Origin: Escherichia coli
GTDB lineage: Bacteria > Pseudomonadota > Gammaproteobacteria > Enterobacterales > Enterobacteriaceae
Assembly (NCBI RefSeq): GCF_001677475.2
Contig: NZ_CP015229.1
DNA length: 64,000 nucleotides
Direction: 5' to 3' (one strand)
The position numbers and the translations under genes are program-made. A model generated the notes under the pieces. It was not told where the DNA came from and did not search any database. It worked only from the letters and a program-made list of their open reading frames with translations. Of this stretch, positions 4,313 to 64,000 are shown piece by piece (positions within the stretch are counted from its first letter, which is position 1; each line of letters opens with the position of its first letter).

Positions 4313-4363
4313 ATGACACGCGTTCAATTTAAACACCACCATCATCACCATCATCCTGACTAG
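4313..4363 (+). CDS. hisL: his operon leader peptide HisL (MTRVQFKHHHHHHHPD, 7 consecutive His codons)
   Basis: 16-codon ORF with His7 run read directly; too short for ORF track. Confidence 0.95.
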   Translation: MTRVQFKHHHHHHHPD

Positions 4364-4423
4364 TCTTTCAGGCGATGTGTGCTGGAAGACATTCAGATCT
4401 TCCAGTGGTGCATGAACGCATGA

Positions 4424-4460
4424 GAAAGCCCCCGGAAGATCATCTTCCGGGGGCTTTTTT
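4424..4460 (+). terminator. his attenuator terminator (gcccccggaag...cttccgggggc followed by T6)
   Basis: Perfect GC-rich hairpin plus T-run between hisL and hisG. Confidence 0.9.
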
Positions 4461-4508
4461 ATTGCGCGATTGATAACGGTTCAGACAGGTTTAAAGAGGA
4501 ATAACAAA

Positions 4509-5413: not shown

Positions 5414-7796
<2,383 letters not shown>

Positions 7797-7797
<1 letters not shown>

Positions 7798-30573: not shown

Positions 30574-30612
30574 CACGCTACCGCCCCTGGCTTTACAGCT
30601 ACCAGAGCACTG
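30574..30612 (-). promoter_or_regulatory. JUMPstart element containing ops (GGCGGTAGCGTG) upstream of the O-antigen operon
   Basis: Minus-strand read: cagtgctctggtagctgtaaagccaggggcggtagcgtg, matching the remembered 39-bp JUMPstart consensus. Confidence 0.9.
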
Positions 30613-35841: not shown

Positions 35842-35902
35842 TTTTTCCTCATAAATTTGATGCCAGGTGAGGCTGTGTTTGTTTTGTTCGTTGCCGCTTT
35901 TT

Positions 35903-36090
35903 GCCTGATGCGACGCTGGCGCGTCTTATCAGGCCTACAAGACCCGAGCACAGAACCGTAGGCCGGATAAGGCGTTCACGCCGCATCCGGCATTCAGTGC
36001 CTGATGCGACGCTGACGCGTCTTATCAGGCCTACAGGTCCCGAGCACAGAACCGTAGGACGGATAAGGCGTTTTACGCCGCATCCGGCAA
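35903..36090. repeat. BIME/REP cluster: two tandem ~90-bp units (gcctgatgcgacgctg[gc/ac]gcgtcttatcaggcctaca...ccgtagg.cggataaggcg...ccgcatccggca)
   Basis: Two near-identical palindromic units read directly; ORF-track ORFs here are spurious. Confidence 0.9.
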
Positions 36091-40497: not shown

Positions 40498-40587
40498 GTC
40501 GTTACCCTTTTTCAGGCAATAGTTGGCCCTGACCGAAGCGGCCAATTTTGTTTTTGTCGTTATTTACATCGCGGTTCGGCATTCATT

Positions 40588-55028: not shown

Positions 55029-55066
55029 CACGCTACCGCCCCTGGCTTTTAGCTACCAATACACTG
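55029..55066 (-). promoter_or_regulatory. JUMPstart/ops element in the long 5' leader of the colanic acid operon
   Basis: Minus-strand read: cagtgtattggtagctaaaagccaggggcggtagcgtg (ops GGCGGTAGCGTG). Confidence 0.85.
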
Positions 55067-55507
55067 ATTTAGCTTAATTTTTAAAACCCTCTCAACATAC
55101 AGTCGTTGATGAGAAAGGGTTATTGCGGAAATTAACTTCCGAATATAAGGTGACATTATGGTAATTGAATATTGGCTCTCCAATAATGCAGGAGGAAGTG
55201 TTACAGCTAACGGAATAGCAGGCAAGGTAACAATTCGGCAATTGGCTATTTTTAAGAATTATATTAAGTGTCATTCAATATGGTTTTTAGGAGTTTCTTT
55301 AGGTTGACAATATTTAATATAGTGTCTCCACATGCGATATTTCTTAAATAATGTTTTATTATTACCACTTTTAATTCAGGGATAATGTGAGGTTATTACC
55401 CTCAAATAATATGAGATAAATAGTGCTGCAACATTGCATTTTTGCCCCGATTTATCCATGATCGAATTGTGACATTTGTCATACAACGAATAGGTTTTGT
55501 ACTTACT

Positions 55508-57091
55508 ATGGAATGGATTGCCGATCCGTCTATCTGGGCCGGGTTAATCACGCTGATTGTGATCGAACTGGTCCTCGGCATTGATAACCTGGTCTTTATT
55601 GCCATCCTCGCCGAAAAACTACCGCCGAAGCAGCGCGACCGCGCACGGGTTACCGGGCTGTTGCTGGCGATGTTAATGCGCCTGTTACTGCTGGCGTCAA
55701 TCTCCTGGCTGGTCACCCTGACACAACCGCTATTCAGCTTCCGCTCGTTTACCTTTAGCGCCCGCGATTTAATCATGCTGTTTGGTGGTTTCTTCCTGCT
55801 GTTCAAAGCCACGATGGAGCTGAACGAACGGCTGGAAGGGAAAGACAGCAATAACCCCACGCAACGCAAAGGTGCGAAGTTCTGGGGGGTGGTGACACAA
55901 ATTGTGGTACTGGACGCCATCTTCTCACTCGACTCAGTGATTACCGCCGTCGGGATGGTCGACCATTTACTGGTCATGATGGCCGCCGTTGTTATCGCTA
56001 TTAGCCTGATGTTGATGGCAAGCAAGCCGTTAACCCAGTTCGTTAACAGTCACCCGACCATCGTTATTCTCTGCTTAAGCTTCCTGTTGATGATTGGCTT
56101 TAGCCTGGTGGCGGAAGGTTTCGGCTTCGTCATTCCGAAAGGCTACCTGTACGCTGCCATTGGTTTCTCGGTGATGATCGAGGCGCTCAATCAGTTGGCT
56201 ATCTTTAACCGGCGACGTTTTCTTTCCGCTAACCAGACGCTGCGCCAGCGGACTACCGAAGCGGTAATGCGCCTGCTTAGCGGGCAAAAAGAAGATGCGG
56301 AACTGGACGCCGAAACCGCGTCCATGCTGGTGGATCATGGTAACCAGCAGATCTTTAATCCGCAGGAACGGCGGATGATTGAGCGGGTACTTAATCTTAA
56401 CCAGCGTACCGTCAGCAGCATTATGACGTCGCGCCACGATATTGAGCATATCGATCTCAACGCGCCGGAAGAAGAAATCCGCCAGTTGCTGGAGCGAAAT
56501 CAGCATACGCGGCTGGTGGTTACCGACGGTGATGACGCAGAAGATTTGCTCGGTGTTGTTCACGTTATCGACCTGCTACAACAGTCTCTGCGCGGCGAAC
56601 CGCTCAACCTGCGGGTGTTGATTCGCCAGCCGCTGGTGTTCCCGGAAACCTTGCCGTTGTTACCTGCCCTGGAGCAGTTCCGTAATGCCCGCACGCACTT
56701 TGCTTTTGTGGTGGATGAGTTTGGTTCAGTGGAAGGGATTGTGACATTAAGTGACGTCACTGAAACCATTGCCGGTAACTTACCGAACGAAGTGGAAGAG
56801 ATCGACGCCCGCCATGATATTCAGAAGAATGCGGACGGTTCCTGGACGGCGAATGGTCATATGCCGCTGGAGGATCTGGTGCAATATGTGCCGCTACCGC
56901 TGGATGAAAAACGTGAATATCACACCATTGCCGGGCTGTTGATGGAATATTTACAGCGTATTCCAAAACCTGGCGAAGAAGTTCAGGTGGGGGATTATTT
57001 GCTTAAAACGTTGCAGGTGGAAAGCCATCGCGTGCAGAAGGTGCAGATTATTCCACTGCGTAAGGATAGCGAGATGGAGTACGAGGTGTGA
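55508..57091 (+). CDS. yegH: Inner-membrane TerC-family/CBS/CorC-domain protein YegH (start at [12 protein letters not shown])
   Basis: TerC-like TM region followed by CBS pair and CorC_HlyC domain in ORF translation; synteny. Confidence 0.9.
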
Positions 57092-57099
57092 TAAAACAT

Positions 57100-57135
57100 C
57101 AAATGCGCAGGTTCAAACTGCGCATTTGATTTATA
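57100..57135 (+). terminator. Rho-independent terminator after yegH (caaatgcgcag...ctgcgcatttg + T-rich)
   Basis: 11-bp perfect inverted repeat read directly. Confidence 0.6.
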
Positions 57136-57165
57136 CAAAATTTAGTATAATCTAAGGATGGAGTA

Positions 57166-57527
57166 ATGAGAAAAAAGCTGGCTTTTCTTGATACCAGTCT
57201 TGACGATTTACGCGCATTTCCAGAATCGTCTCGACAGGAAATTGGCTATCAACTCGCCAGGAAATTGGCTATCAACTCGACAGGATCCAACAAGGGTTAA
57301 ACCCATACGACTGGAAACCTTTTACAACTATCGGCCCGGGTGTGCGAGAGATTCGTACTCGCGATGCTGATGGGATCTATCGCGTCATGTATGTCGCAAA
57401 ATTTGAAGAAGCGGTTTACGTATTGCATTGTTTTCAAAAGAAAACACAGACTACCAGTCAATCGGATATTGATTTAGCCAAACGACGCTATAAAGAACTT
57501 GTTCAGGAGCGGAAAAATGAAAATTGA
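57166..57527 (+). pseudogene. HigB-like (RelE/ParE superfamily, Gp49-like) toxin gene disrupted by a frameshift
   Basis: N-terminal 30 codons in frame 1 (MRKKLAFLDTSLDDLRAFPESSRQEIGYQL) then premature stop; C-terminal part in another frame (…REIRTRDADGIYRVMYVAKFEEAVYVLHCFQKKTQ…). Removing one copy of a 23-bp tandem repeat restores a 112-aa ORF. Confidence 0.7.
57233..57278 (+). repeat. 23-bp direct tandem duplication (gacaggaaattggctatcaactc / gccaggaaattggctatcaactc) causing the frameshift in the toxin gene
   Basis: Two adjacent copies with one mismatch read directly. Confidence 0.85.
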
Positions 57528-57807
57528 AACCTTTGATAGTGTGTGGGATGCGGTGAGTGTCACCCCTGAACAAGCGGAAAATATGCGGATCCGTGCCGAG
57601 CTTGTAACGATCATTAATAACTGGATTGAACAACAAGGGTTTAGCCAGACTCAGGCAGCGTCTGCTTTAGGGGTCACTCAACCTCGCATATCTGAACTTG
57701 CCAGAGGTAAGATCCAGATCTTTAGTATCGATAAATTGATCACCATGATGGCTCATGCAGGATTGCATATTCAACGTATTGAAGTTCAATATCCACATGC
57801 TGCTTAG
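57517..57807 (+). CDS. HigA-like antitoxin (XRE-family helix-turn-helix), start ATG overlaps toxin stop
   Basis: MKIETFDSVWDAV...QTQAASALGVTQPRISELARGKIQIFSIDKLITMMAHAGLHIQ; HTH_XRE-like motif; GGAG RBS upstream. Confidence 0.7.
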   Translation: MKIETFDSVWDAVSVTPEQAENMRIRAELVTIINNWIEQQGFSQTQAASALGVTQPRISELARGKIQIFSIDKLITMMAHAGLHIQRIEVQYPHAA

Positions 57808-57818
57808 TACTATAAATA

Positions 57819-57848
57819 CAGATGGCGACAAATTGACGCCGCCATCTG
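57819..57848. terminator. Possible hairpin terminator between antitoxin gene and asmA (cagatggcg...cgccatctg); weak flanking T/A runs
   Basis: 9-bp inverted repeat read directly. Confidence 0.35.
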
Positions 57849-57859
57849 CATAACTTGTC

Positions 57860-59713
57860 TTACATCTTCTCCAGCAACTTCTTCACATCTTTGCCATTGC
57901 GGGAATCTTTATTCCGCTCGGCCCAGTCATTCAGGCGACGTTTCGCTTCGTCCTGTAGATGTTTGCGCAGTAACTGATCCACTTGCAGACTGTAATTGAG
58001 TTGCTGCCAGTTGCCATAAACCCGCAGCGGTACTGGCGTTTCTTTGAGGAAATCAATCAGTTTGCTTTCCCCGTTCCAGCCACCCACGACCCGAATATCA
58101 AACTGGGTGTCGCAGGTTTGATCTGCCAGATTCAACATACCTTCCCCTGTAAGCGCCAGCACAGGCGATTGACCTTGCATGTCGTTTAACGTCACGACGC
58201 CATCCTTCAACGTCAAATCGGTGGTAAAGCGATCAAGCCGCGTCACGTTATCGAAGTTTTCAGCGGCCTTCACATCACCACCATTACGCTCTACCGCTTG
58301 CTGAATCATCTGCTGGAAGTTCATCCCTTCCATGCGCGTGTCAGTCATTTCGACATGTGCCTGTCCTTGCCAGTTGTGGCGGAATGCGTCGGCATCTATG
58401 TCAGCACCGGAGAAATCACCAGCCAGTGACATTTTTCCGGTCAACGAAATCGGATAGTTAAACGCCTTCAGAATGGTACCAATCTCAACGTTTTCCAGCC
58501 GTGGCTGAAAGTTTATCCGCGGATTTGCTGATGTCGCGTCCAGCGTGCCCGGCAGTGAAACCTGTCCACCGTTAAGTTTGCCCTGCAGTTGAGTAATTTC
58601 CAGCAAACCCGACTTGTTGGTCATTTGCGTGGCAACATCTGTAAAATTCATTCCGCGCCAGCGCACGTTACTGGCTTGCAACAAAATATCAGCCGTAAAG
58701 CCTTGCAGTCCCTGATAGGCCGGTTCATCAATACGCGAAGAAATGACCGGGCGCGGCAACGTTGATTGGCTCTGCCCTTGCTGCGCGGCACCGTTTTCAC
58801 CATTCGCTGTTTCATTAAGCGGGATGAGGTTGTCAAGATTCAGTTGCGGGAATTGCAGTCTCAGCTGCCATTCCGGTTTCTCTGTCAGCGTGACCTGTGC
58901 TTGCCCGCTCAGCGTACTTTCATTGGCGGTCAAGCTGATTTGGTTAAATGAAAGGCGTTTATGTGACTCCTGCCACTGGGCCTGGAAACTCCCCTGCCCC
59001 TGAATACCTTGTTTTGGTAAATCGGCACCCTGCAACTGCCAGTTAATTTGTTCAATAGCCGCCGTTAAATCATGCGGATAATCAGAAGCATCTACCGTAC
59101 CGTTAAGGGATATCGTGAGATCGCGCTGATCGCGATTAACCCGCCCGGAGAACTCAAATGAGCCACGATGTTGGGGATCTTGTTCCATTTGCAGGCGGAT
59201 ATTACGGATTGTCACCTGCTCGTCATCTTCATGCTGGAACACCAGAACGCTGTCCGCCACCTTAAGACTGGATATATCAAACGACCATCCGCGATCGTCT
59301 GACAGATCCGGCAAAGTATTGTCGCGCGGTGCAACAGGAGCGTCTTCACTGCGCACCGCTTCAGTCTGCGGCGTCAGTTGGATCACTGCCCCTTTTAGCA
59401 TCACCTGCTTAACGCTCAGTTGATGACTCAGTAGTGGTAAAAGCGCCACGTCCAGACGCATGTTGTCGGCGCGAACCAGTGGCTGGCTTGCGCCCTGGGC
59501 GGTGAGAGACATTCGCCCGGAGAGGATACTAAGCTGCGGCCAGACGTGCCAACGCAGTGGCCCGTCGAGCTGCAATTGATAACCGCTACGTGCAGCAACT
59601 TGCTTGACCATATAGTCGCGGAAATCATTCGGATTCACCAGCAACACTAACGCAGATAACCCGGCCACCAGCACGACCAGGAGTATCATCAGCGTCGTCA
59701 GAAATCGTCTCAT
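57860..59713 (-). CDS. asmA: Outer-membrane assembly protein AsmA
   Basis: 617 aa; N-terminal TM anchor; synteny with dcd/udk. Confidence 0.9.
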   Translation of the reverse strand: MRRFLTTLMILLVVLVAGLSALVLLVNPNDFRDYMVKQVAARSGYQLQLDGPLRWHVWPQLSILSGRMSLTAQGASQPLVRADNMRLDVALLPLLSHQLSVKQVMLKGAVIQLTPQTEAVRSEDAPVAPRDNTLPDLSDDRGWSFDISSLKVADSVLVFQHEDDEQVTIRNIRLQMEQDPQHRGSFEFSGRVNRDQRDLTISLNGTVDASDYPHDLTAAIEQINWQLQGADLPKQGIQGQGSFQAQWQESHKRLSFNQISLTANESTLSGQAQVTLTEKPEWQLRLQFPQLNLDNLIPLNETANGENGAAQQGQSQSTLPRPVISSRIDEPAYQGLQGFTADILLQASNVRWRGMNFTDVATQMTNKSGLLEITQLQGKLNGGQVSLPGTLDATSANPRINFQPRLENVEIGTILKAFNYPISLTGKMSLAGDFSGADIDADAFRHNWQGQAHVEMTDTRMEGMNFQQMIQQAVERNGGDVKAAENFDNVTRLDRFTTDLTLKDGVVTLNDMQGQSPVLALTGEGMLNLADQTCDTQFDIRVVGGWNGESKLIDFLKETPVPLRVYGNWQQLNYSLQVDQLLRKHLQDEAKRRLNDWAERNKDSRNGKDVKKLLEKM

Positions 59714-59734
59714 GGTATCCTCAATGGGCCTGAA

Positions 59735-60316
59735 TTAGTCTTTATCGATTCGGCTGGCTACCGCGCCCTGCTGGTTGCGATATTTCGCATCTTCACGGCG
59801 GTTGTAAGGTCGCGCCGCCGGGCCGGAAAGCGGCTCAAAGCTCAGCGCACCAATTAACATGCCCGGACGCAGCGCCAGCGGCAACTTACCGGAGTTGTAG
59901 AACTCCAGCACAATGCAGCCAGACCAGCCCGGATCGATACGGTGCGCGGTGACGTGCACCATAAGCCCCAGACGCGCCAATGAGGAACGCCCGTCCAGCC
60001 ATCCCACCAGATCGGCTGGCAGCGTCACTGACTCCAGCGTCACCGCCAGCGCCAGCTCTCCTGGGTGAAGATAAAACGCCTCGCTTTCATCGAGTACGAT
60101 CTCATCGCTCATCACGCGGTCAAGCGCGGCGCTCACTTCATCTTTGGGACCGCTCAGATCGATAAACGCTGCCGTGTGACCACGGAAGGTACGAAATTTA
60201 TTGCCCAGGCGCACATCCACCGTCGCGCCATTAATACGCTCCACTGGCGGACGTGGGTTGATCGACAAACGGCCTTCATCAAGCCAGGCTTCAATATCTC
60301 GGTCACACAGACGCAT
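59735..60316 (-). CDS. dcd: dCTP deaminase Dcd
   Basis: 193 aa [17 protein letters not shown]... Confidence 0.95.
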
Positions 60317-60407
60317 GGCATTTTCTCCTTTCGCGCATCACTCCCTTAACGCCAATTACGTCAAGGGCATACCAGGTTATCACTGAACGGTACACAATTT
60401 ATCAAGC

Positions 60408-61049
60408 TTATTCAAAGAACTGACTTATTTTCGCTTTCAATATATCGATGGCGATGCGGTTTTTCCCGCCGCGCGGCACGATAATGTCCGCATATTGTTT
60501 AGAAGGCTCAATGAATTGCAGGAACATCGGGCGCACGGTTTTTTGATATTGCGCCATCACGGAATCCATTGAACGCCCACGCTCGTTAACGTCACGCTTG
60601 ATGCGCCGCATCAGACAGATATCCAGCGGGGTATCAACGAAAATTGAGAAGTTAAGTTCATCACGCAAACGCGCATCCGTCAGCAGCAAAATGCCTTCGA
60701 GAATGATGACTTTCTTCGGCTCAACCGTCACCGTTTCTTTCATACGCGTATGTTCAACATAGCTGTAAACCGGCAGGTCAATGGCCGAGCCGCGTTTCAA
60801 TGCTTGTAAATGCTCAAGCAGCAGGCTGTGATCCATCGCGCTGGGATGGTCGTAGTTGGTCTTAACGCGTTCTTCCATCGACAGATGGCTTTGATCTTTG
60901 TAATAGCAGTCTTCGGGAATTACGCCGATGTGTTCATCACCGACTTGCTCACGTAATTCACGATAAAGGGTACTGGCAATAAGACTCTTGCCGGAAGCCG
61001 ATGCGCCAGCGATACCGATAATGACGCACTGATGAGACTGATCAGTCAT
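60408..61049 (-). CDS. udk: Uridine/cytidine kinase Udk (start at [22 protein letters not shown])
   Basis: P-loop [11 protein letters not shown]; 213 aa from the chosen start. Confidence 0.95.
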
Positions 61050-61366
61050 ATATTTAGCGACCTGATTAACCTGGATGTTAGGAAGGGGGCGACGAAGCGC
61101 CAAACGCGGCAATTATAGGGATTTCATCCGCCTGATACCAGTCGAATAGCGTTGCCGCGCGCTCAGAGTAATTGTTGACGAATAATTCCCGGTGGCAAAT
61201 TACGTTGTTCAGTTTTAATGCAAGGTAAAAATTGTTATACGCAGTTGCGCAAATTATCCGCCTTTACGTCACTTTATGAGCAATTCGCATATAAAATGTA
61301 AAACTTTTGTACTAGCATAAACACAGAAACGAATACTGGCGACCTGGTCTTGCGGATAAAGCGGTA

Positions 61367-64000
61367 ATGAGCAAACAATCACAGCATGTATTAATTGCCC
61401 TACCCCACCCGCTGCTTCACCTGGTCAGTTTAGGTTTAGTCTCGTTTATCTTTACCCTTTTCTCGCTTGAGCTTTCGCAGTTTGGCACCCAACTCGCCCC
61501 ACTGTGGTTCCCGACGTCCATCATGATGGTGGCGTTTTATCGCCATGCCGGGCGCATGTGGCCGGGGATTGCGCTGAGCTGCTCGCTGGGAAATATCGCC
61601 GCATCCATCCTGCTTTTTTCCACCAGCTCGCTGAACATGACCTGGACGACCATCAATATTGTTGAAGCCGTGGTCGGGGCAGTGCTACTGCGTAAATTGC
61701 TGCCGTGGTATAACCCATTGCAAAATCTGGCTGACTGGCTGCGTCTGGCACTCGGCAGCGCCATTGTTCCGCCTCTGTTGGGGGGTGTTCTGGTTGTCCT
61801 GCTGACGCCCGGAGACGATCCTCTCAGGGCATTTTTGATATGGGTACTGTCAGAATCCATCGGCGCACTGGCACTGGTGCCGCTGGGATTGTTATTTAAA
61901 CCACACTATCTGCTGCGCCATCGCAACCCACGGTTGCTTTTTGAGTCGCTGCTCACGTTGGCCATCACACTGACGTTAAGCTGGCTTTCGATGCTGTATC
62001 TGCCGTGGCCTTTTACTTTCATTATTGTGCTGTTGATGTGGAGCGCCGTGCGCCTGCCACGAATGGAAGCCTTTTTGATCTTCCTTACCACGGTGATGAT
62101 GGTGTCACTGATGATGGCCGCTGATCCCTCCCTGCTTGCTACGCCGCGTACATACCTGATGAGCCATATGCCGTGGCTACCGTTTTTGCTGATCCTACTG
62201 CCCGCCAACATCATGACCATGGTGATGTATGCCTTTCGTGCGGAGCGCAAACACATTTCCGAAAGCGAAACCCGTTTTCGTAATGCCATGGAATATTCCG
62301 CCATCGGCATGGCATTAGTGGGCACCGAGGGACAATGGCTGCAATCCAACAAAGCACTCTGCCAGTTTCTCGGTTACAGTCAGGAAGAACTGCGCGGACT
62401 CACCTTTCAGCAACTGACCTGGCCGGAGGATCTCAATAAAGATCTGCAACAGGTTGAAAAGCTGATCAGCGGTGAAATAAACACCTATTCAATGGAAAAA
62501 CGCTACTACAACCGCAATGGCGATGTTGTCTGGGCGTTGCTTGCCGTCTCACTGGTGCGCCACACGGATGGCACGCCGCTCTATTTTATCGCTCAGATTG
62601 AAGACATTAACGAGCTAAAACGCACCGAACAGGTGAATCAGCAACTGATGGAGCGCATCACGCTGGCTAACGAAGCGGGCGGGATTGGCATCTGGGAGTG
62701 GGAGCTTAAGCCGAATATTTTTAGCTGGGATAAGCGGATGTTCGAGCTGTATGAAATTCCTCCGCATATCAAACCGAACTGGCAGGTGTGGTACGAGTGC
62801 GTGCTGCCGGAAGATCGCCAGCACGCCGAAAAAGTGATTCGCGATTCATTGCAATCGCGCTCTCCCTTTAAACTGGAATTTCGCATTACCGTGAAAGACG
62901 GCATTCGCCATATCCGCGCCCTCGCTAACCGGGTACTGAATAAAGAAGGCGAAGTCGAACGCCTGCTCGGCATTAATATGGATATGACCGAAGTGAAACA
63001 GCTTAACGAGGCATTGTTTCAGGAAAAAGAGCGCCTGCACATAACGCTGGATTCCATCGGTGAAGCCGTGGTCTGTATTGATATGGCGATGAAAATTACC
63101 TTTATGAATCCGGTGGCGGAGAAGATGAGCGGCTGGACGCAGGAAGAAGCGTTAGGTGTTCCGCTCCTGACGGTGTTGCATATTACTTTTGGCGACAACG
63201 GACCATTAATGGAGAACATTTACAGTGCCGACACCTCACGTTCCGCGATTGAACAAGATGTGGTGTTGCACTGCCGAAGCGGCGGCAGCTACGACGTGCA
63301 TTACAGTATTACGCCGTTAAGTACTCTGGACGGCAGCAATATAGGCTCGGTTCTGGTGATTCAGGACGTCACCGAATCACGCAAAATGCTGCGCCAGCTG
63401 AGCTACAGCGCCTCCCATGATGCACTGACGCATCTCGCCAATCGCGCCAGTTTTGAGAAGCAACTACGCATCCTGCTGCAAACGGTAAACAGTACACATC
63501 AGCGACATGCACTGGTGTTTATCGATCTTGATCGCTTTAAAGCGGTGAATGACAGCGCCGGGCACGCCGCTGGCGACGCTTTACTGCGCGAACTGGCGTC
63601 ATTGATGCTGAGTATGCTGCGCTCCAGCGACGTGCTGGCGCGACTCGGTGGCGATGAATTTGGTCTGCTGCTGCCAGATTGTAATGTCGAAAGTGCGCGT
63701 TTTATCGCTACACGCATTATCAGCGCCGTGAATGACTATCACTTTATCTGGGAAGGACGTGTACATCGGGTAGGTGCCAGTGCCGGGATTACCTTGATTG
63801 ATGACAACAATCATCAGGCGGCTGAAGTGATGTCGCAGGCTGATATCGCCTGTTATGCCTCCAAAAATGGTGGACGGGGCCGGGTGACGGTTTACGAACC
63901 GCAGCAAGCTGCCGCACATAGCGAACGGGCGGCGATATCGCTTGATGAACAGTGGCGGATGATTAAAGAGAATCAGTTGATGATGATCGCCCACGGTGTC
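61367..64000 (+). CDS. dgcE: Diguanylate cyclase DgcE (YegE), 5' portion only; ORF runs off the window end (MASE1, PAS and GGDEF domains present)
   Basis: Manual plus-strand translation from ATG 61367 (MSKQSQHVLIALPHP...) remains open to 64000; GGDEF motif (LARLGGDEFGLLL) near 63650; not in ORF track because no stop codon lies in the window. Confidence 0.85.
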   Translation, partial: MSKQSQHVLIALPHPLLHLVSLGLVSFIFTLFSLELSQFGTQLAPLWFPTSIMMVAFYRHAGRMWPGIALSCSLGNIAASILLFSTSSLNMTWTTINIVEAVVGAVLLRKLLPWYNPLQNLADWLRLALGSAIVPPLLGGVLVVLLTPGDDPLRAFLIWVLSESIGALALVPLGLLFKPHYLLRHRNPRLLFESLLTLAITLTLSWLSMLYLPWPFTFIIVLLMWSAVRLPRMEAFLIFLTTVMMVSLMMAADPSLLATPRTYLMSHMPWLPFLLILLPANIMTMVMYAFRAERKHISESETRFRNAMEYSAIGMALVGTEGQWLQSNKALCQFLGYSQEELRGLTFQQLTWPEDLNKDLQQVEKLISGEINTYSMEKRYYNRNGDVVWALLAVSLVRHTDGTPLYFIAQIEDINELKRTEQVNQQLMERITLANEAGGIGIWEWELKPNIFSWDKRMFELYEIPPHIKPNWQVWYECVLPEDRQHAEKVIRDSLQSRSPFKLEFRITVKDGIRHIRALANRVLNKEGEVERLLGINMDMTEVKQLNEALFQEKERLHITLDSIGEAVVCIDMAMKITFMNPVAEKMSGWTQEEALGVPLLTVLHITFGDNGPLMENIYSADTSRSAIEQDVVLHCRSGGSYDVHYSITPLSTLDGSNIGSVLVIQDVTESRKMLRQLSYSASHDALTHLANRASFEKQLRILLQTVNSTHQRHALVFIDLDRFKAVNDSAGHAAGDALLRELASLMLSMLRSSDVLARLGGDEFGLLLPDCNVESARFIATRIISAVNDYHFIWEGRVHRVGASAGITLIDDNNHQAAEVMSQADIACYASKNGGRGRVTVYEPQQAAAHSERAAISLDEQWRMIKENQLMMIAHGV

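Follow-up and report, generated by a model that had tools for sequence, protein, structure and literature searches.

What has happened to the toxin gene between yegH and asmA in this Escherichia coli chromosome, and why does it no longer read through? The original prediction had described a toxin gene inactivated by a 23-bp tandem duplication beside an intact antitoxin gene, and named toxin decay, a slippage-prone site and a sequencing or assembly artefact as possible explanations. The window (the whole stretch of 64,000 nucleotides that was analysed) covers the E. coli his / O-antigen / colanic acid / yegH / asmA / dcd region. Against 5,426 complete E. coli genomes its best match reaches just 96-98% identity over 14-25 kb stretches, so the lineage of the source strain, or its O-antigen-region haplotype, is poorly represented among complete genomes. 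No relevant publications were found on ECs2869/ECs2870 or on a toxin-antitoxin (TA) locus together with yegH and asmA.

The TA operon has the toxin gene first and the antitoxin gene second. Its left neighbour is yegH, encoding a TerC/CBS/CorC membrane protein (55508-57091, + strand; identified by its open reading frame (ORF), Pfam domains and the RefSeq annotation of homologous loci), and its right neighbour is asmA (57860-59713, - strand; ORF and homologous loci). A terminator scan detected a hairpin with a 13-bp stem 3' of yegH (57098-57130), which is putatively a terminator. On reading the sequence, a perfect TATAAT (57146-57151, + strand) is found 15 nt 5' of the toxin ATG and is a candidate -10 element of the operon. 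A consensus scan of the + strand returned no full -35/-10 pair, which leaves this TATAAT as no more than a candidate. It is followed by an AAGGA/GGAG ribosome-binding sequence ahead of the toxin ATG. No Rfam family reached its gathering score within 55067-64000. Elsewhere in the window a His leader (4339-4462), STnc240 (1525-1599) and an algC RNA motif (40502-40551) were found, as well as two JUMPstart elements on the minus strand (30574-30612 and 55029-55066), which are expected 5' of the O-antigen and colanic-acid (wza) operons. PADLOC gave no matches but insignificant ones and no known defence system.

The duplication itself is well defined. In Tandem Repeats Finder the region 57230-57285 comes out as a single array (period 23, 2.4 copies, 93% matches, 0 indels). 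On the + strand, copy 1 of the 23-bp unit (57230-57252) is CTCGACAGGAAATTGGCTATCAA and consists of the 10-mer CTCGACAGGA and the 13-bp spacer AATTGGCTATCAA. Copy 2 (57253-57275, + strand) is CTCGCCAGGAAATTGGCTATCAA, with the 10-mer CTCGCCAGGA carrying C at 57257, and accounts for the 23 bp by which this allele exceeds intact ones. A third 10-mer, again CTCGACAGGA, repeats the start of the unit at 57276-57285 (+ strand). As had been proposed, the two adjacent copies differ at one base only, A57234 versus C57257. Reading this repeat in the register 57233-57255 / 57256-57278 displaces it by 3 bases, again with one mismatch. The first and third 10-mers are the ancestral direct repeat and the probable substrate for slippage. 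It is established that slipped-strand misalignment between short direct repeats produces small tandem duplications and deletions.

Adjacent repeats with a period of 15-40 and at most one mismatch occur at two loci in the window, the toxin repeat and a (GCTG)n tract. Five shuffles of the window contained no adjacent repeat of that quality, and a chance origin of the 23-bp repeat is therefore excluded. The second locus is a perfect (GCTG)7.5 tract at 7299-7328 within hisC (6715-7797). The HisC encoded here is 360 aa long, against 356 aa with a single LAGW in K-12, and the tract in the window looks like the result of an in-frame gain of three units. A longer repeat at 35902-36089 (a 96-bp unit, 1.9 copies) holds REP/BIME-like palindromes and includes an Rfam naRNA4 match (35961-36031, 79.7 bits).

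Retranslation bore out the proposed reading of the frame. The truncated toxin ORF (57166-57300, + strand; its exact product is recorded elsewhere) encodes 44 aa, of which residues 1-30 are native and the following 14 are out of frame, and it ends with a stop at 57298-57300 (codon 45). The remainder of the toxin, residues 33-112, lies at 57286-57527 (+ strand), starts in mid-codon and no longer shares the frame of the ATG at 57166. It was recovered by frame-2 translation and by tblastn (98.9% identity over residues 21-112), is identical to intact alleles and shows no further damage. Removal of either copy in silico, in either register, gives one identical 112-aa ORF ending at 57527, again as proposed. 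The uninterrupted ORF of about 110 aa expected of this family is absent from the window, and the toxin gene there is a pseudogene of the Gp49/HigB-type family.

The family assignment comes from the repaired ORF, whose exact 112-aa product is also encoded by other E. coli isolates. Its match to Pfam Gp49 (PF05973) has an E-value of 6.5e-31 and covers the full model (1-90 of 90). In the same Pfam-A scan there was, besides Gp49, one insignificant hit, and HigB-like_toxin was not matched. The NCBIfam model TIGR02683 (upstrm_HI1419 RelE/ParE toxin) gave 27 bits (E 4.4e-06), which is below its curated cut-off of 62.85 bits. A homologue search of the repaired toxin returned 7,824 proteins; those listed are mostly about 110-113 aa long, and conserved residues are found in both halves. 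The AlphaFold model of the repaired ORF (pLDDT 91.7) contains a strand, two helices, four strands and a long C-terminal helix, and thus shows N-terminal helices on an antiparallel beta-sheet, as in the RelE-like fold. The best PDB match in Foldseek is Mycobacterium tuberculosis HigB1 (7nbu/7awk, crystal and ribosome-bound; TM 0.68), followed by Streptococcus pneumoniae HigB (6af4), Vibrio cholerae HigB2 (5ja8) and then RelE, YafQ and ParE. A PDB search by sequence only gave a weak match to S. pneumoniae HigB alone. The gene is also coupled, toxin first, to a gene for a helix-turn-helix antitoxin (Xre/HTH_37) with an overlap of 11 nt. The intact toxin belongs to the RelE/ParE superfamily as a HigB-type protein with a Gp49 domain and, judging by its homologues, would be a ribosome-dependent mRNA endonuclease. 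The label 'HigB-like' given earlier therefore stands in the broad sense of a Gp49/HigB-type fold, and fails in the narrow sense, because the canonical HigB family of Pfam is not matched.

The antitoxin gene (57517-57807, + strand; ORF, with Pfam HTH_37 found in identical loci) is of HTH_37/Xre type and full length at 96 aa. It starts 11 nt before the toxin reading frame ends (57517 versus 57527) and has its own AGGAG 7 nt 5' of the ATG. The protein matches PHROG 2339 (HTH protein) with an E-value of 4e-26 and is 97-99% identical to antitoxins that are paired with a toxin, carrying the substitutions Val15 and Thr45. The Ala45Thr change (A at 57649), at the start of the helix-turn-helix, is private to the sub-lineage of the window, and Ala is retained in the other two-copy loci L003-L006. 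Relaxed constraint on an orphan antitoxin could be behind it, but it is a single change. The premature stop in the toxin leaves 216 nt of untranslated mRNA ahead of the antitoxin start, which could cause polarity on the antitoxin. With its own ribosome-binding site and a full-length ORF the antitoxin persists as an orphan, and its expression would be expected to continue. No second toxin copy that it could serve was found within the window. An anti-addiction role against plasmid copies was considered and rejected: the homologues on 423 plasmids belong nearly all to other genera, and only three close matches are among E. coli 'plasmid' records.

A comparison of homologous loci for the copy number of the 23-mer, suggested together with the original prediction, was carried out on 5,426 complete E. 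coli genomes. The module is present at least in part in 910 of them, and the 5' part of the toxin gene in about 790. Intact homologues have one copy. The listed matches from the roughly 790 genomes all span the one-copy length (83 bp against a 106-bp query), and with a module query of 771 bp the listed complete-genome matches are all 748 bp long, again the one-copy length. None of the highest-ranked of these toxin-bearing genomes has the two-copy allele. One copy was read directly in O157:H7 Sakai (ECs_2869/ECs_2870) and in the loci L009-L018. In Sakai the toxin gene reads CTCGACAGGA, 13 bp, CTCGACAGGA, so that the 10-mer is already present twice, 23 bp apart, and one-copy alleles as a group read CTCG[A/C]CAGGA-13 bp-CTCGACAGGA. 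These intact one-copy orthologues at the same yegH-asmA position, together with the full-length 96-aa ORF, confirm that the toxin has been inactivated and the antitoxin left intact.

The two-copy allele is genuine and inherited. Its exact 44-aa product is recorded from at least 24 contigs. The identical allele, A-S-C-S-A (A- or C-bearing 10-mers separated by the spacer S), is present in the assemblies GCA_018683295.1, GCA_040939905.1, GCA_033745465.1, GCA_016118575.1, GCA_016118615.1, GCA_031341795.3 and GCA_037967675.1, in the Logan raw-read assemblies SRR25183521, ERR14024652 and ERR10434734 and in the metagenome ERZ927465. Over 4,272 bp the carrier loci differ from the window at 0, 1, 19, 33 and 34 sites, mostly in asmA, and the TA cassette is nearly invariant. 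Since the flanks differ among carriers, these loci are not one clone. The two-copy allele has a single origin and predates the recombination that diversified the flanks.

Taken together, the feature is very probably an inherited toxin pseudogene that arose by a 23-bp slippage duplication and left an orphan antitoxin, a case of plain toxin-first decay. The 10-mer repeats would have misaligned during replication or repair, and the 23-bp unit would thereby have been duplicated; slippage is the probable mechanism. The duplication shifts the frame after codon 30 and ends translation at codon 45, giving a predicted toxin null, and the antitoxin, with its own ribosome-binding site and full ORF, stays as an orphan. 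The allele has one origin, was passed on by descent and came to lie on several recombinant flanking haplotypes.

The behaviour of the repeat in other genomes agrees with the proposal of a slippage-prone site. In L029/L030 (1501-1815) exactly 23 bp are deleted between the 10-mers and a 1-bp deletion 20 nt downstream restores the frame; the product, P0049, has 104 aa and is without the conserved G27, Q29 and Q34. L028 also has a 23-bp deletion, with a different junction, and its deletion is thus independent of that in L029/L030. Independent 23-bp deletions at the same repeat identify the site as a slippage hotspot, and copy numbers 0, 1 and 2 of the 23-mer are all present in the population.

Toxin decay leaving an orphan antitoxin, the other course that had been proposed, is supported as well, and the two hold together. 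At least 7 other independent toxin lesions that spare the antitoxin were found at this locus. They include +1 and -1 frameshifts in a C/G run on other contigs, the nonsense alleles W42* and Q35* and a frameshift near residue 77 (P0103), as well as the P0081 truncation and the 042-type replacement described below. One short metagenome contig of uncertain quality may have lost the start codon. Wherever the antitoxin was seen beside these lesions it was full length (96 aa). Such toxin-first decay is the expected direction, because antitoxin-first loss would be lethal. Orphan antitoxins and toxin pseudogenes are reported from Klebsiella populations too.

Three arrangements at the locus were seen in more detail. 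P0081, an 82-aa product found on 326 contigs (the longest 5.05 Mb), stops after His80-Cys81-Phe82 and has several extra substitutions; its allele is another toxin pseudogene at this site, more widespread and, it appears, older. In a 042-type hybrid (L002 2112-2502, from E. coli 042, set against L040 2785-3076) the spacer of TA-less genomes, together with ~155 additional bp, stands in place of the promoter and of the toxin gene's first 192 bp. It is fused to what is left of the toxin gene and to an intact antitoxin gene. Roughly a hundred complete genomes share this hybrid, and the orphan antitoxin of 042 is identical to the paired antitoxin of Sakai. In L021 (E. coli WB61; 1-1305) yegH is annotated as a pseudogene truncated at the C-terminal end, and all that is left of the antitoxin is its final ~50 bp, followed by the spacer before asmA; this looks like a deletion of the 3' end of yegH, the toxin and most of the antitoxin.

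The single A/C mismatch between the copies complicates the origin of the allele. It falls on toxin nt 69 (CGA/CGC, Arg23) and is synonymous. It had been read as a sign that the duplication is not brand new. The conclusion stands, owing to the diversity of the flanking haplotypes, and the argument does not: the mismatch was rejected as a clock of duplication age, as A/C at this site is a rare polymorphism that already existed and is found among the nearest one-copy relatives. A C-type query had no exact match in the ~790 toxin-bearing complete genomes, each listed match being one base away from it. Neither A-S-A nor C-S-A can give A-S-C-S-A by slippage in one step; one or more additional events must have taken place, whether a point mutation, conversion over a short tract or a templated change of a recurrent kind. 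Exact look-up in a collection of 15 billion proteins did not return the products predicted for perfect-duplication or three-copy intermediates (A-S-A-S-A, C-S-C-S-A).

A different origin with the same outcome is conceivable, and we regard it as a tentative alternative of appreciable but minor probability. Here, instead of simple slippage and then a random point mutation, a C-type one-copy allele would have been duplicated and its first 10-mer then turned to A by recombination ending at the 23-bp heterology, or a recurrent templated A-to-C change would have completed the small palindrome GCCA...TGGC. C at nt 69 is indeed common among one-copy loci encoding exactly the repaired protein (8 of the 10 sampled) and is present in the middle copy of every two-copy allele, and the C-type L009 differs from the two-copy L004 at 26 of 1788 sites on the left and at only 4 of 2428 on the right. 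The left flank of two-copy loci (the yegH allele) is, however, common to many TA-less genomes, and the discontinuity may reflect recombination that did not touch the toxin. The C allele can form a 5-bp hairpin (-2.5 kcal/mol) and the A allele cannot, but this hairpin is weak (z -1.1), and the sample behind the whole reading is small. An A at 57068 (YegH Gly->Ser) was also tried as a private derived marker of two-copy loci, with the duplication as the junction of a recombination by which the left flank was acquired, and was rejected: the exact YegH is common (481 index blocks) and also occurs beside TA-less loci.

It is unlikely that the duplication is the OFF state of a reversible switch, in which precise slippage reversion would toggle the toxin at the population level and the one-copy locus L016 would be a revertant. 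The geometry would allow it, as the copies share a perfect 22-bp run of period 23 and all 23 deletion windows through this run restore A-S-A exactly. L016 (A-S-A; source ERR14024112) has the flanks of the two-copy L004 apart from one real SNP over 3.6 kb, and from its sequence may be either the progenitor or a precise revertant of the two-copy allele; it serves equally well as the progenitor. The occurrence of copy numbers 0, 1 and 2 across the population, and of the antitoxin SNP 57560 T/A with both two-copy and C-type one-copy alleles, would suit a switch, but rampant recombination of the flanks accounts for such mosaic patterns. Two copies of a 23-mer are also far less mutable than classical contingency repeats, within-strain heterogeneity is not documented, and the many irreversible lesions at the locus (nonsense, 5' replacement) point to plain decay. 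If it were true, a switch would make this a modestly interesting toxin gene open to resurrection.

By the AlphaFold model of the repaired ORF, the 44-aa product retains just strand 1, helix 1 and part of helix 2. It is without the whole beta-sheet and the invariant E54, R56, R65, Y68 and H80-K84, and it has no NCBIfam family match and no precomputed Pfam hit. The absence of the sheet and of the conserved residues of the C-terminal half makes the allele a predicted toxin null, and the model argues strongly for loss of toxin function. That a toxin is nevertheless made, from an internal GTG start at 57342 or by ribosomal frameshifting over the duplication, is highly unlikely. A 61-aa ORF covering residues 52-112 does begin at this GTG, and some pipelines annotate it, or an 80-aa ORF, as a gene. 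However, the GTG has no Shine-Dalgarno sequence upstream, and the fragment is without strands 1-2 and helices 1-2 of the fold and without the invariant L15, F18, P19, G27, Q29, Q34, P39 and W42. No slippery heptamer is seen by eye at the junction, and a frameshifted product would still contain an insertion of ~8 residues in helix 2. For annotators, the ORFs of 44, 61 and 80 aa at this position are pieces of one pseudogene.

That the extra 23 bp are a sequencing or assembly artefact, as had been allowed for, is scarcely credible: no RefSeq complete genome among the highest-ranked carries the two-copy allele, but the identical allele, middle-10-mer C included, in at least 11 independent samples with different pipelines and different flanking haplotypes excludes it, and a 23-bp tandem duplication is an untypical mode of read error.

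The feature is thus an ordinary lineage-specific toxin pseudogene, accompanied by an orphan antitoxin, from a TA family already known. It adds little to present knowledge. As a natural example it is clean and well sampled, and it follows the order expected of TA decay, toxin first and antitoxin kept; one chromosomal site combines a defined hotspot, with a duplication and deletions, and at least 8 independent toxin-killing lesions.

The locus resembles textbook slipped-strand misalignment in having a 10-bp direct repeat with a 13-bp spacer and in showing both the duplication and the reciprocal 23-bp deletions. It departs from the simple form of that process in its middle 10-mer, which differs by one base, as one step does not predict.

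Orphan antitoxins are abundant in E. coli (PMC10790755), and the transposon Tn5501.5 has a truncated toxin and an intact antitoxin (PMC7157771). As in those cases, the toxin is lost or broken here and the antitoxin ORF is kept. The pattern has arisen independently more than once at this one locus. What sets the lesion in the window apart is that it consists of a defined 23-bp tandem duplication, located at a 10-bp direct repeat which also gave deletions.

Pairs of a Gp49 toxin and an HTH_37 antitoxin with the toxin gene first are recognised as a HigBA-type class within the RelE/ParE superfamily (PMC5906591, PMC7157771). The pair described here shares the toxin-first order, overlapping genes and an HTH_37 partner with M. 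tuberculosis HigB1 (Rv1955), Acinetobacter baumannii HigBA and the Gp49-HTH_37 pairs of Tn3-family transposons. It differs from these Gp49 HigBA systems in that its toxin is frameshifted and that the TIGR02683 score is under the cut-off, and the repaired toxin has merely 13-21% sequence identity to the solved HigB structures. Canonical HigB (Proteus vulgaris Rts1 HigB, E. coli K-12 HigB/YgjN) belongs to the same superfamily and has the same reversed operon order; it falls into Pfam HigB-like_toxin, whereas the repaired ORF matches Gp49 only.
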